From Clostridia bacterium (GTDB lineage: Bacteria > Bacillota > Clostridia > Christensenellales > CAG-138), in contig JAFXZJ010000055.1 of assembly GCA_017541305.1 (NCBI GenBank), positions 25,778-89,777 on the forward strand: a DNA stretch of 64,000 nt. Direction: 5' to 3'. Below, one piece after another: positions 27,240 through 55,236 of the stretch. Position numbers and translations under genes: made by a program. The notes under the pieces were generated by a model. It saw only the letters and a program-made list of their open reading frames with translations, made no database searches and was not told the origin of the DNA. How positions within the stretch are numbered: the first letter of the stretch is position 1; every line of letters begins with the position of its first letter.

Positions 27240-27268
27240 TTGACTTGCCGGAAAAAAGGATGTATAAT
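27240..27268 (+). promoter_or_regulatory. Perfect sigma-70 promoter for tRNA-Leu
   Basis: TTGACT-17nt-TATAAT, about 10 nt upstream of the tRNA 5' end. Confidence 0.6.
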
Positions 27269-27277
27269 CATCACACT

Positions 27278-27360
27278 GCAGATGTGGTGGAACGGCATAC
27301 ACAGCGGACTTAAAATCCGCCGGCGAAAGCTTGAGGGTTCAAATCCCTCCATCTGCACCA
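27278..27360 (+). tRNA. tRNA-Leu (anticodon TAA), CCA-encoded
   Basis: Acceptor stem GCAGATG/CATCTGC, anticodon loop CTTAAAA, long variable arm, T-arm GGTTCAAATCC, 3' ACCA. Confidence 0.8.
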
Positions 27361-27395
27361 ATACCCCCATAGCCATCGGCTATGGGGGTATTGGT
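27357..27395. other. Perfect 16-17-bp palindrome abutting the tRNA 3' end (terminator or att-associated structure)
   Basis: CCAATACCCCCATAGC-CATCG-GCTATGGGGGTATTGG. Confidence 0.5.
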
Positions 27396-27503
27396 ATATA
27401 TGAATGAAGGGATTTGAAGGGCGGGTCAGCGAAAGCAACGGTGTTGCGCTCCTGATAAGGATACATCACTAGAACAATAAGCACAGTATAAGGCAGAACG
27501 AAA

Positions 27504-27540
27504 TCGAGACAGGCAGCGGGCTTGTCTCGATTATCTTTTT
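27504..27540 (+). terminator. Intrinsic terminator-like hairpin
   Basis: TCGAGACA/TGTCTCGA stem followed by TTATCTTTTT. Confidence 0.35.
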
Positions 27541-27654
27541 AGAAAACATTTTTGCACATCCGTTAAAGCGTATCCGGTCTGCTATCGAATTTCCAAAAAG
27601 TCAAAGGAGGATGCCTTCCGGCATGCCAAACCGAAGATGTGCCCTCACATTAAT

Positions 27655-28170
27655 TCAGCTTCTGCTTCTGCTTTTGCCGAACAGCGCAAGCGCTGCAATA
27701 CTCACAACGACGGAAGCGATGATGATGATGATCGTCTTTCGCGAGAGTTGGCCTTTGCTCCAAAGTATAATAAGATACACGACGCCTGCGATCGCCGCAG
27801 CAGCGAAAAATACCGTCAGGATCAAAAGGGCTATCCCGATCTTTGTGTTTTTTTCATCCTCTCGCCTAACAAGCGCTCTTCGATGCTCTGCTTTTTCCTG
27901 CAGTTCCTTTAGCCGCTTTTCACATTCCGCCTGTTTCTCTCTTGCTCCGGAGACAAACGGAATTGAAGCTGTCAGACGGATCGCGTCCTCGCATCCCGCC
28001 GTTGTATTATGCTGCATCAAACGGTCCGCCTCCTGTAGGATCCTGCCGTACTTCCGTACGTCCGCCAAATCAGCGTCAAATGCATTTCCGCAGGAATCAC
28101 AGACCATAAGTCCGGACTCAATCACGATATGCATATCTCCCCCACAGATGGGGCAGACGAATGGTTTCAT
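27655..28170 (-). CDS. Zinc-ribbon (CPICG...CDSCG) membrane-anchored protein, 171 aa
   Basis: N-terminal double CxxC, helical linker, two C-terminal TM helices. Confidence 0.6.
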   Translation of the reverse strand: MKPFVCPICGGDMHIVIESGLMVCDSCGNAFDADLADVRKYGRILQEADRLMQHNTTAGCEDAIRLTASIPFVSGAREKQAECEKRLKELQEKAEHRRALVRREDEKNTKIGIALLILTVFFAAAAIAGVVYLIILWSKGQLSRKTIIIIIASVVVSIAALALFGKSRSRS

Positions 28171-28199
28171 TATTTCATCACCACTCCTTCTTAAACACT

Positions 28200-52224: not shown

Positions 52225-53084
52225 AGGAATTGAAAGAAATAAGGATCTGTGATTTGAAGCCCTTTGAGGAACACCCTTACAAGGTGCTTGACAATGAAGA
52301 GATGGACGCATTGGTAGAAAGCATCTTGGAACACGGGATAATGACACCACTGATCGTACGGCGGGTCGGTAACGGTTACGAGATCATATCCGGGCACAGG
52401 CGCGCGCATGCGGCAGAATTGGCGGGACTGGAGACTGTTCCGGCGATCGAGATGGATATGACAAAGGATGAGGCAGAGGTTGCTCTTGTTGACAGTAATC
52501 TTCACCGCGAACATCTGCTGCCGAGCGAAAAGGCGTTTGCTTACAAGCTCAAACTCGAAGCTCTGTCCCGTCAGGGCAGGCGGACGGACTTAACTTCGGG
52601 ACAAGTTGTCCCGAAGTCAGATGGCAACCGAACGACTGCTGTCATCGGGGGGCAGACTGGTGAAAGCTACAAGACCGTGCAGCGCTACATCCGCCTCACA
52701 CACCTTATCCCCGCTCTTCTCGATATGGTAGATGACGGACGTATCGCGTTTTCCGTCGGTGTTGAACTTTCATTCCTTGACAGCGATCTGCAGGCAGCGC
52801 TCATGACCGCTATTGATCTGAACGACTGTACGCCGTCATATGCCCAGGCCTGCCGGATGCACAAGGCCGTGAACGACGGCTCTATCAGCGAGGAAATGAT
52901 CGATAAAATCATGGCGGAAGAAAAGCCGAATCAGAAGGAAAAGGTCAGCATATCCGCGGATGAGCTTCGCGGGTACGTGCCAAACGGCACTCCATCCGAG
53001 ATGAAGGCGTTTATCAGAAAAGCATGTGAGCATTATTCGGATTATCTCAAGCGAAAGGAGCGTAATAGCGATGAAGCGAGATAA
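52215..53084 (+). CDS. ParB/Srx N-terminal domain nuclease-like protein
   Basis: GHRRAHAAELAGL motif. About 93% identical to 57179..58057. Confidence 0.8.
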   Translation: MDVKELKEIRICDLKPFEEHPYKVLDNEEMDALVESILEHGIMTPLIVRRVGNGYEIISGHRRAHAAELAGLETVPAIEMDMTKDEAEVALVDSNLHREHLLPSEKAFAYKLKLEALSRQGRRTDLTSGQVVPKSDGNRTTAVIGGQTGESYKTVQRYIRLTHLIPALLDMVDDGRIAFSVGVELSFLDSDLQAALMTAIDLNDCTPSYAQACRMHKAVNDGSISEEMIDKIMAEEKPNQKEKVSISADELRGYVPNGTPSEMKAFIRKACEHYSDYLKRKERNSDEAR

Positions 53085-53265
53085 CGACATAAAAGGTACG
53101 CCGCTGTCTGTGATCCTGCCGTTTGAAAACCTTGAGGAAGCGAATTCACAGGCGAAGTTTACCGTAAAGTCGGCCGGAACTGTCTATACCGTAACCACGC
53201 ATTTTGATCCTTCCGGCAAGCAGAGCGTATTCGATCAGCTGAAAAAGCTCCTGCTCCCTGATTGA
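53071..53265 (+). CDS. Small recombinase-associated hypothetical protein (64 aa)
   Basis: AAAGGAG RBS. Tightly packed between the parB-like and recombinase genes. Confidence 0.4.
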
Positions 53266-53341
53266 CCGTACATTTGAGTTTTTACGTCGGGCACGGTATC
53301 GTAAATATGCCTTTACTGTGCCCGATGTGGAAAGGAGCCAT

Positions 53342-55009
53342 ATGAAAAACAAATCATCTGGGCAGGAAAAGATAACAGCTCTGTATTGCCGTCTCTCTCA
53401 GGACGACGGCAGAGAGGGCGAAAGCAACTCGATCTCCAATCAGAAGGAGATATTACAGGCATACGCCAAGAAGAACGGGCTGCTGCATCCCAAGTTCTTC
53501 GTAGACGACGGCTACTCCGGCACGACCTTCGACCGTCCCGCGTTTCGCGAAATGGAAGCCATGGCCGAGAACGGAGAGATAGCTACGATAGTTGTGAAAG
53601 ACCTCTCCCGCTTCGGCAGGAATTATCTTGAAGTCGGCCAATACCTTGAGATCAAGTATCCGACGCTCGGAATCCGTTTTATCGCCATACAGGATAACGT
53701 CGATTCCGAGAGCAACACCGGCACCGAGCTTATGCCGTTCTCCAACATCTTCAATGAATGGCATGCGGCTACTACGTCCAAGAAGGTTCGAGCCGTTTGG
53801 GCTTCTAAAGCCGCTCAGGGAAAACGCGTCAGCCATATTATCCCTTACGGATATGTTCGGGACGAAAAAGATATCGAGAAATGGCATATTGACCCGGAAG
53901 CCGCGGAAGTAGTGAAACGCATTTATGACTTATGCCTTTCCGGTAAAGGGCCTTCACAGATCGCTCGAATACTGGAGGCGGACCGGATTCCGACACCTTC
54001 GGAGCACTTTATCTCCATTGGTCGGAATCCCTGCAGCAAGGTCACGGCTATTCCGTATAATTGGTCGGGTGACTGCGTAGCGGATATACTGGATAATCGG
54101 GTGTACACCGGCTGCGCTGTGAACCACAAGACGACGCGTGTCAGCTACAAGGTACATAAGATGATCTATCACCCCGAAGAGGAATACCAGATCATTCCCA
54201 ATATGCAGGAACCGATCATTCCCGAAGAAACGTGGCTTCGGGTACATGAACTCAGGTCACATAAGCACAGGCCGACAAAGTACGGTTTCACCAGTATTTT
54301 CTCCGGATTGGTTTTCTGTGCCGATTGCGGGAAGAAGCTATACTTCCTTGCGCCGAAAAAGGATCGTCCCAATAGTCAGCACTTTGTTTGCTCCGGTTAC
54401 AAAAACGGACATCATGGCTGTACGACGCACCATATCCGCGAGGTAGTCCTTAAGGAGATCGTTTGGGAAAGCATAACGAGGTTCGTGGATTTTGTCCGTT
54501 CATATGAATCGGTTTTCGTCTATCTGCTGGAACAGCGGAATGCGAAAACACGTTCCGTTGATCTCAAACGCATGAAAAGAGCTGTTGAGAACAACAGAAA
54601 GCGTATTGATGAAATAGACGTACTGATCGAACGCATCTATGAGGACAACGTAAAAGAAAAGCTGACCGACGAGCGTTTTCTGACAATGAGCCGCAAGCTT
54701 GAGGAAGAACAGCGCTTGCTCAAAACCGAAACGGAAGCTGTTCAATCGGAGCTTGCAAAAGAAGAGGAACGGAAAACGGACCTCCGCCTTCTTCTGAAAA
54801 CCATAAGGGAACAAACGGATATCAAAGAGCTGACGCCGCAGCTGGTGAATACTCTAATTCGCCGGATCGAGATCCACGAAGCCGTAAAAAACGGCAACGA
54901 AAAAACCGTTGCTGTGGATATCTTCTTCACAGGGATCGGCCTGTTCTCGGTCCCCGATTCGGACGAGCTGTCCGCTTTGATCGCCGAATTTTCCAAGCAT
55001 TCAGCATGA
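53342..55009 (+). CDS. Large serine recombinase (resolvase catalytic domain, recombinase domain, zinc ribbon, coiled coil)
   Basis: [26 protein letters not shown] with the catalytic Ser. C...C zinc ribbon FCADCGKK...CSGY. GGAAAGGAG RBS before ATG at 53342. Confidence 0.85.
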
Positions 55010-55158
55010 AAACGGTGCAGGCATTAACCGCCTGCACCAACCCTCAAAAAGTATCCTTATACGGAATGCCCCGTGTTGCTTTCGCCCGCCCCGGGTTTTG
55101 ATCCCTGCCCGTTTTGCGCAGCACGAAGTGCAAGCTAAACGTGGCAATAGGGTCAAAA

Positions 55159-55179
55159 CAAATCCCTCCATCTGCACCA
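55159..55179 (+). repeat. Direct repeat of the tRNA-Leu 3' end (att-like), 21/21 identical to 27340-27360
   Basis: CAAATCCCTCCATCTGCACCA. Flanked on both sides by convergent serine recombinase genes. Confidence 0.6.
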
Positions 55180-55180
55180 T

Positions 55181-55226
55181 AGCGAGTATTGACAACGGAT
55201 TTCAGTCAATACTCGCTTTTCTTTTG
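55181..55226 (+). terminator. Hairpin terminator
   Basis: AGCGAGTATTGAC-loop-GTCAATACTCGCT followed by TTTCTTTTG. Confidence 0.5.
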
Positions 55227-55236
55227 CCTAAAATGC

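Follow-up and report, generated by a model that had tools for sequence, protein, structure and literature searches.

What delimits the foreign DNA beside the tRNA-Leu(TAA) gene of a Clostridia bacterium, and which recombinases brought it there? In a 64-kb stretch of one contig (64,000 nucleotides [nt]; here called the window), the 21-nt 3' end of this gene recurs some 27.8 kb further on, and two genes for large serine recombinases (LSRs), int1 and int2, converge on the distal copy. A first-pass annotation had taken the two 21-mers as the bounds of a single mosaic island, attributed either to an older integrase since lost or to serine recombinases that use the tRNA end. Comparison of junctions with related contigs suggests instead that two unrelated integrations, of an island A by int1 and of an element B by int2, very probably interrupted an array of 187-bp repeats at tRNA-Leu.

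The tRNA-Leu(taa) gene (27278-27360, plus strand; ARAGORN) is the sole tRNA gene in the window and is chromosomal, with a promoter-like region and core genes at a GC content of 0.59 upstream; an identical empty-site contig gave an Rfam tRNA score of 59.9 bits. At the tRNA, GC content drops from ~0.59 on the left to ~0.50 and stays low up to the window end. The foreign segment had been annotated as ending at 55230; low-GC DNA runs to the window end and beyond, and chromosomal genes (GC content, 0.56 to 0.60) resume beyond element B in overlapping contigs that continue the window past its end (window position = 73063 - position in contig L005; such positions are called virtual).

Both recombinases contain, in the same order, the domains Resolvase, Recombinase, Zn_ribbon_recom, and DUF4368 (Pfam). 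The int1 gene (53342-55009, plus strand; gene call from L005/L175) encodes 555 aa and int2 (55237-56937, minus strand) encodes 566 aa; both proteins match PF00239, PF07508, and PF13408 above gathering scores and PF14287 (DUF4368) with E values of 4e-17 (int1) and 2e-17 (int2). They have the N-terminal ...ALYCRLS.DDG... in common and are 38% identical by alignment, less than the ~50% first estimated. The genes converge by their 3' ends on the distal 21-mer, as annotated. The int1 stop (55009) lies 149 nt to its left, in agreement with the ~150 bp given, and int2 lies 57 nt to its right on the minus strand, so that the spacing of 58 bp and the strand stand, whereas 55237 is the int2 stop and not its start. 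NikA-like/MobC and ParB_N modules upstream of int1 and int2 form an inverted repeat (86 to 90% identical), which points to two related backbones lying tail to tail with different integrases. The domain scan covered the 30 main open reading frames (ORFs) between 27.6 and 64 kb, with small ORFs outside it, and no phage-integrase (tyrosine recombinase) domain was found in those 30.

The empty site and the ends of island A

The 21-mer, CAAATCCCTCCATCTGCACCA, occurs exactly twice in the window (0 copies expected by chance), at 27340-27360 and, as annotated, at 55159-55179, both on the plus strand; no further copies with ≤3 mismatches were found in the window. Copy 1 extends from the T-loop to the CCA of the real tRNA. 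Three contigs (L006, L007, and L008) from three samples (ERZ28653837, ERZ28018703, and ERZ28654293) and two assemblers, retrieved by exact-protein look-up, run from the core genes and tRNA-Leu straight into the int2 element, and island A is absent from them. Their order is tRNA...ACCA, hairpin 1, ...GGGCGGGTCAGCGAAAGCAACGGTGTTGCTTTCGCCCGCCCC..., 21-mer, hairpin 2, and int2. Hairpin 1 (27358-27374/27378-27394) has perfect 17-bp arms and a 3-nt loop and overlaps the tRNA CCA; it is the palindrome annotated beside the tRNA with a 16-bp stem. Both 21-mers are kept in these contigs, 187 bp apart, with 166 bp between tRNA-Leu and the second 21-mer. Empty-site comparison had been named beforehand as the test that could refute an island bounded by the 21-mers. 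Since both copies are present in the empty site, the repeat is not an att duplication made by a 27.8-kb island, and since they predate the island, no lost tyrosine integrase is needed to explain them.

The joint restored in these contigs reads ...GCGAAAGCAACGGTGTTGCTTTCGCC.... Comparison of filled and empty sites places the true junctions at 27441/27442 and 55073/55074, with GTGTTGC common to both (27441-27447 and 55073-55079). Island A (27443-55072; GC content, 0.39 to 0.55; delimited by empty-site comparison and Pfam) is thus a 27,632-bp insertion counted from GT to GT. Its ends are 22-bp inverted arms, GTATCCTTAT..., around GT, which lie 81 nt and 85 nt inside the 21-mer pair. The P arm GTATCCTTATACGGAATGCCCC (55051-55072) with its GT crossover (55073-55074) spans 55051-55074 on the plus strand, was located by motif search, and is kept in int1 relatives; the P' arm GTTGCGCTCCTGATAAGGATAC (27443-27464, plus strand) is its inverted repeat, an imperfect complement. 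Only three GTATCCTTATMMGGA sites occur in the window (0.3 expected), namely, the two inverted island ends and a remnant described below. The target is an imperfect AT-flanked palindrome centred on CG-GT-G, GAAAGCAACG-GT-GTTGCTTTC, which forms a hairpin of the first repeat unit (S1) and is re-formed intact in the empty site. In the filled site the left part of that unit (27361-27442, plus strand) holds an inverted T-arm-like sequence, GAAGGGATTTG, the left palindrome arm GGGCGGGTCAGCGAAAGCAACG, and GT at 27441-27442; the right part (55075-55158, plus strand) holds the right arm GTTGCTTTCGCCCGCCCC and a long imperfect hairpin. The predicted junctions are GTATCCTTATACGGAATGCCCC-GT-GTTGCGCTCCTGATAAGGATAC for attP-A and GCGAAAGCAACGGTGTTGCTTTCGC for attB-A.

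With A and B removed in silico, Tandem Repeats Finder reports a period of 187 bp with 2.1 copies and 93% matches. The repeat opens with CAAATCC in the tRNA T-loop, and a third copy of 145 bp and then a terminal partial copy, CAAATCCCTC, follow. Because the unit begins in the T-loop, each unit opens with the tRNA 3' end (matching at 21/21, 17/21, and 10/21 nt), copy 1 of the 21-mer being the first 21 nt of unit 1 and the copy at 55159 the start of unit 2. Each unit has a predicted Y-shaped fold (z = -6.2 and -4.7) in which the closing stem pairs GAAGGGATTTG with CAAATCCCTCC of the next 21-mer and one arm is the palindrome used by int1.

An exact 21-nt repeat from T-loop to CCA, with integrase genes adjoining its distal copy, is the classic footprint of a tyrosine-integrase island, and on that reading the 21-mers would be the attL and attR cores of one 27.8-kb island whose insertion, by a lost tyrosine integrase or a serine recombinase, duplicated the tRNA end. 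Such an origin is now extremely improbable: the island-free contigs still hold both copies, the real ends are inverted arms around GT that lie inside the repeat pair, the same island also occurs at a site without a tRNA, and the 30 ORFs scanned encode no tyrosine recombinase domain. Nearly as improbable is that the island-free contigs are assembly artefacts. About 120 bp are identical between units 1 and 2, across which an assembly might collapse, and island A sequence is present on other contigs of the same samples. The join lies at the exact GT, restores a perfect palindrome, is not in repeat register, and has beyond it the right part specific to unit 1, CCGTTTTGCGCAGCAC...; contigs from three samples and two assemblers are concordant, and the island reads are explained by two samples in which the island left end is assembled on another chromosomal flank.

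That flank belongs to a second occupied site in the same species (site 2), where the left end of island A with an identical arm was found in five contigs (L197, L199, L201, L202, and L206). Two of the site-2 samples, ERZ28653837 and ERZ28018703, are samples in which the tRNA-side site is empty. The site-2 left flank, joined to the right flank of L148 (98%-identical integrase), gives a similar palindrome, AAAAAGGATCCG-GT-GGATCATTTT. Among 43 metagenomic int1 relatives, the terminator and P arm are conserved to the GT, beyond which there are at least eight flanks unrelated to one another and a weak N5-7-TTTT pattern; a tRNA within 600 nt was found at none of 29 int1-like loci (0/29). The many unrelated sites of its relatives and the second site of island A suggest that int1 encodes a low-specificity, transposase-like LSR of the TnpX/TndX-like DUF4368 clade. 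Its position beside a tRNA is incidental to the tRNA, and island A is an ordinary member of the TnpX/TndX-like kind of mobilizable transposon, with a GT instead of a GA crossover.

The starting locus would have been chromosomal tRNA-Leu(TAA) followed by about three tandem 187-bp structured units, and int1 would have moved island A, in the manner of a transposon, into the GT of the AT-flanked palindrome that forms the hairpin of unit 1. The presence/absence polymorphism and the second insertion site are indirect evidence of attP x attB recombination, and the elements may be active at present.

Element B and tRNA 3' ends as probable targets of the int2 family

Element B (minus strand) starts at 55180, occupies the window to 64000, and has a total length of 17,720 bp, to virtual 72,899. 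At its int-proximal end (55180-55236), where the sequence reads 21-mer (...CTGCAC-CA)-TAGCGAGTATTGACAAC-GGATTT, hairpin 2 contains the P arm TAGCGAGTATTGACAAC-GGATTT, and a T-run comes next on the tRNA strand. Hairpin 2 (55181-55193/55205-55217; 13-bp arms) abuts copy 2 of the 21-mer, in keeping with the hairpin annotated there. Copy 2 serves as the B half-site of the element B attL, with a probable crossover at CA 55178-55179. The far end was reached via contigs carrying VanY and then TnpV and reads, in window orientation, ...AAATCC-GTTATGATGATTCGCAC-CA-ATACCCCCATAGCC...; past its CA lies ATACCCCC (hairpin 1, repeat unit 2) in L005, L006, L007, L100, and L105-L108. The right junction is identical in all five contigs that cover it (L100 and L105-L108). 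Since the hairpin 1 sequence follows the far-end CA, the DNA there is native DNA from downstream of the tRNA and constitutes the B' side of the int2 attB. The predicted junctions are AAATCCGTTATGATGATTCGCAC-CA-TAGCGAGTATTGACAACGGATTT for attP-B and the 21-mer plus ATACCCCCATAGCC, downstream of unit 1, for attB-B. The joined ends give an attP of ~48 bp symmetric about CA, RAATCC-N17-CA-N17-GGATTY, and the same N17-CA-N17 geometry was found at the far ends of two relatives, at tRNA-Arg (L040) and tRNA-Leu(gag) (L061), followed by a native tRNA-type terminator.

A scan of species-representative genomes yielded 80 loci with int2 relatives (57 to 95% identical), all from metagenome-assembled genomes of gut or rumen Clostridia. 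Seventy-three of the 80 abut a tRNA 3' end, and 12 tRNA species are represented. At 58/80 loci a full convergent tRNA is present whose CCA directly adjoins a conserved hairpin of the element (...A|TGG...); 5/80 have an 18- to 25-nt tRNA 3' fragment, a 130- to 200-nt spacer, and then a full tRNA, 10/80 have a tRNA-3'-like fragment alone, and at 7/80 the arrangement is other or the downstream sequence is too short. Integrases 88 to 95% identical to int2 have Gly(tcc), Gly(ccc), Leu(gag), and Leu(cag) tRNAs as their sites. The arrangement of hairpin 2 and T-run recurs in the int2 relatives, and in element B it seems to replace the terminator of the tRNA-type end upstream. An alternative role of hairpin 2 as a split att site was rejected; the hairpin is intact in the integrated state and the T-run follows on the tRNA strand.

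The T-loop motif (tRNA positions 57 to 62) lies 12 nt from C75-A76 in every tRNA, 5 bp nearer the crossover than in the attP arms. In the LI/A118 integrase, the motif of the zinc-ribbon domain is likewise shifted 5 bp inward in attB relative to attP (Rutherford et al., PMC3783163), and by analogy RAATCC may be the zinc-ribbon-domain motif of int2, 17 nt from the centre in attP and 12 nt in the tRNA. An RAATCY motif stands exactly 17 nt from TG in 36/80 int2-family loci. The attL and attR share only CCA (up to GCACCA). The attB of the int2 family thus appears to be the tRNA-gene 3' end, with strand exchange at C75-A76 of the encoded CCA, and GT and CA would be the exact crossover dinucleotides of int1 and int2. 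Of the earlier suggestion that serine recombinases use the tRNA end, the part concerning int2 and its family, which cross at the CCA end, is retained; int1, with its GT crossover at AT-flanked palindromes, does not conform to it. By its geometry (AAATCC-N12-CA), copy 1 of the 21-mer is an unoccupied B-type half-site for int2. Crossover in the T-loop with an element-borne tRNA 3' end was tried as a candidate and rejected; elements that are nearly identical are found at different tRNAs, each intact, and the sequence common to attR and the tRNA is confined to (GCA)CCA.

At this locus, int2 would have inserted element B at the CA of the CCA end in the tRNA-like 21-mer of unit 2, leaving the real tRNA untouched. 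Insertion by the int2 family would keep the tRNA whole, the element bringing a new hairpin and T-run behind it. The mechanisms proposed for A and B are drawn from junction comparison, and several points weigh against them. Element B is present in every contig sampled, and the uninterrupted unit 1 (tRNA plus hairpin 1) is a paralogous stand-in for its empty site. The right junction of site 2 comes from another dataset (L148) and was matched by palindrome logic alone. RAATCY is absent from the P arm in 44/80 relatives, so that T-loop mimicry applies to only part of the family, and the B' side of the int2 attB has no conserved motif in the three cases seen. Two scans of IMG/VR returned neither attP junctions of A and B nor excised circles, and among the ORFs scanned no relaxase domain was found in either element, both of which carry NikA-like/MobC and ParB_N modules. 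IMG/VR held only distant int2 relatives (≤33% identical), and use of TnpV homologues as far-end markers yielded no new junctions, TnpV being internal in other elements.

A more general model, tentatively put forward, is that one clade among the DUF4368 LSRs evolved to read the universal T-loop-to-CCA end as an attB half-site, with attP arms that mimic the T-loop 5 bp further out and exchange at C75-A76, by which one enzyme could insert behind many tRNA genes and leave them undamaged; structured repeats of tRNA ends might then be maintained as decoy landing pads that draw elements off the real tRNA terminator.

Phages and other mobile elements often carry tRNA genes, and adjacency alone is silent on ownership, so the tRNA genes beside int2-family integrases might be element cargo and not targets. 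There is very little chance of this. Near-identical elements abut different tRNAs, the element hairpin being constant up to the A before TGG; in L020, L021, and L023 an operon of six tRNAs ends with the tRNA in question; the window tRNA has core-genome GC content and flanks and is present without island A; and a terminator-type hairpin lies past the far ends of element B, L040, and L061, as expected for displaced DNA from downstream of a tRNA. The 187-bp units themselves might be miniature or decayed integrative elements, similar to cis-mobilizable elements, left by successive integrations that each regenerated attB through a copy of the tRNA 3' end. Five relatives (L036, L052, L089, L091, and L092) have a layout of this kind, between them at four other tRNAs, the copies decay with distance from the tRNA (21, 17, and 10 nt), and the fragment length equals one LSR B half-site. 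Even so, an origin of the units in decayed elements is unlikely, since homology among the three units extends from end to end, a better fit to duplication than to independent decay, and the array closes with a partial unit, as in tandem duplications. The unit end holds a B-type half-site without a P-type arm pair usable by an LSR, and among the three copies 11 of 53 predicted pairs are changed on both sides yet still paired, a pattern suggesting that the structure itself is under selection. The favoured origin of the 187-bp unit is tandem duplication in the host, with a second copy that by chance gave a full B half-site. Given the recurrence of the layout in other lineages, the units may yet be remnants or landing pads linked to the integrase family.

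Repeat units, cargo, and neighbouring features

In the five relatives with a separate fragment (L036, L052, L089, L091, and L092), the element abuts an 18- to 25-nt 3' fragment that starts in the T-loop of Arg, Pro, or Leu(gag) tRNAs, and the full tRNA lies 152 to 220 nt past the fragment, behind a structured spacer. The spacer layout in L036, L052, L089/L091, and L092 comprises a terminator, an inverted T-arm copy, hairpins, and a direct tRNA 3' fragment. The 187-bp unit (27361-27442 plus 55075-55179; L100 9554-9874) could be an unrecognised small RNA cotranscribed with tRNA-Leu or a structure at the DNA level. Rfam at a permissive threshold returned only the tRNA from the empty-site sequence, with miRNA-type matches that merely reflect the palindrome. 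No unit homologues were found outside this species by nhmmer and BLAST against all fetched loci, and the repeat-unit core had no match in JGI metagenomes when scanned as an exact pattern. Unit 2 (L005 1-170/L100 9698-9874; virtual ~72,900-73,060) carries a second, unoccupied int1 target palindrome. The short contig L110 breaks exactly within this palindrome, perhaps because the repeat interrupted assembly or because that sample carries another insertion.

Island A itself is composite, with an older int1-type stump and an insertion sequence inside. The stump (41045-41301, plus strand) is the remnant of a second int1-type element and contains the last 63 integrase codons, a terminator, the P arm GGATCCTTATACGGAACGTACC (41278-41299), and GT (41300-41301); it matches the final 190 nt of int1 and the 65 nt that follow at ~87% identity, which bears out the integrase remnant annotated at 41044-41234. 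Unrelated DNA follows the GT, and on its 5' side the stump is joined to a CRISPR-like repeat that has been truncated. The insertion sequence (41415-43058, minus strand) encodes a UPF0236-family transposase (41438-42877) and has 23-nt terminal inverted repeats. Taken broadly, the annotated hotspot with several accretion events therefore holds, as two independent elements, the stump of a third element of int1 type, and an insertion sequence, with sites and specificities that differ.

The CRISPR-like sequences are 36-nt direct repeats, GTTTGAGTACCCCATAGATTTACACTACTCTCAAAC, with 29- to 30-nt spacers (40907-40942, 40972-41007, and a partial copy at 41038-41046), plus a degenerate copy at 39517-39552; the third repeat is cut after 9 nt, at the fusion with the integrase remnant. 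They resemble a mini-CRISPR array, and no cas genes were found among the ORFs scanned. They could instead be a recombinase-site motif, because L141 and L151, two distant int1 relatives, have a similar AGATTTACACTA..CT.AAAC motif downstream.

Other island A cargo annotated with Pfam includes TIR_2-plus-TPR proteins (three paralogues), an SPFH/zinc-ribbon protein, DUF4760, a HepT/MNT toxin-antitoxin pair, an SDF symporter, and a Peptidase_M78/HTH regulator pair; the right-end module consists of NikA-like, ParB_N, and int1. The TIR_2/TPR paralogues (28688-39196, minus strand; 546, 890, and 811 aa) all have a zinc-ribbon-like N terminus and differ in their C termini (none, RCC1 repeats, and DUF6273), and the SPFH/multi-zinc-ribbon protein and DUF4760 are interleaved with them. 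This block looks like defence cargo; PADLOC returned no match for any TIR/TPR cargo protein. In L179, L181, and L183, which belong to the island A backbone family, a VapE-like primase/helicase gene (~455 aa) lies between the NikA-like and ParB genes; it is absent from both window elements (compared with window 51904-53084). Both elements have short repeats, TGCAAGCATCGCCTTTG...CAAA, upstream of their NikA-like genes (51691-51828 and 59785-59838); the repeats are also found, inverted, near the M78/HTH regulators (50227-50292), and they may be operator or oriT-type sites common to both backbones.

Within the window, element B encodes int2, an 82-aa ORF, ParB_N, NikA-like/MobC, an S24 LexA-like repressor, a Schlafen/AlbA_2 protein, and VanY; beyond it are a two-component system, an AEP-TOTE/DEAD/PLD protein, AAA_14, and TnpV. 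VanY stands next to a response regulator/histidine kinase pair, a 302-aa protein, and a CHIM_prot-domain protein (62286-63992; L005 5388-9925), a group that may be a cell-wall stress or glycopeptide-type cassette. Apart from both elements, a 2.6-kb low-GC segment (window ~17,876-20,450; GC content, 0.43 to 0.46) with three minus-strand genes (393 aa, a zf_Tbcl protein, and 114 aa) sits between ADP_ribosyl_GH ORFs of 59 aa and 265 aa and looks like a small insertion splitting an ADP_ribosyl_GH gene.

Relation to known recombinases and islands

The domain order of int1 and int2 is that of TnpX (Tn4451/Tn4453) and TndX (Tn5397) in the DUF4368 clade; int2 is ~38% identical to a plasmid gene annotated as tndX, and the TnpV gene of element B is a further point of resemblance. 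The crossover dinucleotide in Tn4451 and Tn5397 is GA. In contrast, the shared cores here are GT(GTTGC) for int1 and (C)CA for int2. Exchange by TnpX/TndX involves 2 bp (PMC5704250), and the DUF4368 clade has been classed as multi-targeting (Durrant et al. 2022, PMC10083194). With its many unrelated sites, loose common motif, and fixed 2-bp crossover, int1 resembles this clade (PMC10083194; PMC5704250). Like multi-targeting LSRs, int2 has many sites (12 tRNA species), yet these fall into one structural class, tRNA 3' ends.

The int2 attP is similar to those of the A118/LI, Bxb1, and phiC31 integrases in being pseudo-palindromic, ~48 bp long, and with a non-palindromic central dinucleotide, and the outer motif lies 5 bp nearer the centre in the attB half-site than in attP, as for the LI integrase (PMC3783163). 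Unlike the phage serine integrases, int2 has as its target a generic feature of many tRNAs and not one unique gene, the motif is present in the B half of its attB only, and element B restores a terminator and not a coding sequence.

The int2 family is the interesting part of the locus and an exception to the rule that a tRNA island implies a tyrosine integrase. Site-specific serine-recombinase integrative and mobilizable elements (IMEs) have been described as integrating within, and disrupting, dispensable genes, tRNA 3' ends being targets of tyrosine-recombinase IMEs (Guedon et al. 2017, PMC5704250), and a large LSR survey never mentions tRNA (PMC10083194). A full-text literature search returned no description of tRNA-targeting LSRs, although supplementary tables of recent mobilome papers might list cases. 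Island finders and annotation use the rule, which a sizeable serine-integrase family of gut and rumen Clostridia breaks, and the family would escape target surveys sorted by disrupted protein gene. A recombinase that reads the T-loop and CCA, which are near-universal in bacterial genomes, and leaves the gene intact would be an attractive broad-host integration tool. The locus also counsels caution, in that an exact tRNA-end repeat around foreign DNA can pre-exist in a host tandem repeat and be uninformative on island bounds.

Like tyrosine-integrase islands at tRNA genes (the sublocation classes of Williams 2002; Islander), the int2 family lands at the tRNA 3' end and leaves the tRNA intact, with the integrase gene at the tRNA-side junction and tandem arrays at one tRNA. 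Unlike them, it belongs to another enzyme family, duplicates no long identity block, and crosses over at the CCA and not in the T-loop or anticodon loop, and the 21-mer repeat was not created by insertion, both copies being held by the empty site. Elements and remnants gathered at one locus, with an int stump within island A, recall the tandem or matryoshka composites of IMEs and integrative and conjugative elements in Firmicutes (PMC5704250; PMC12084326), and the NikA/MobC and ParB backbone recalls that of the "MGEs" (mobile genetic elements) of the Faecalibacterium mobilome (2025, PMC12084326), here with no relaxase among the ORFs scanned. Unlike the members of matryoshka composites, A and B used different sites in a host tandem repeat and not each other's att sites.

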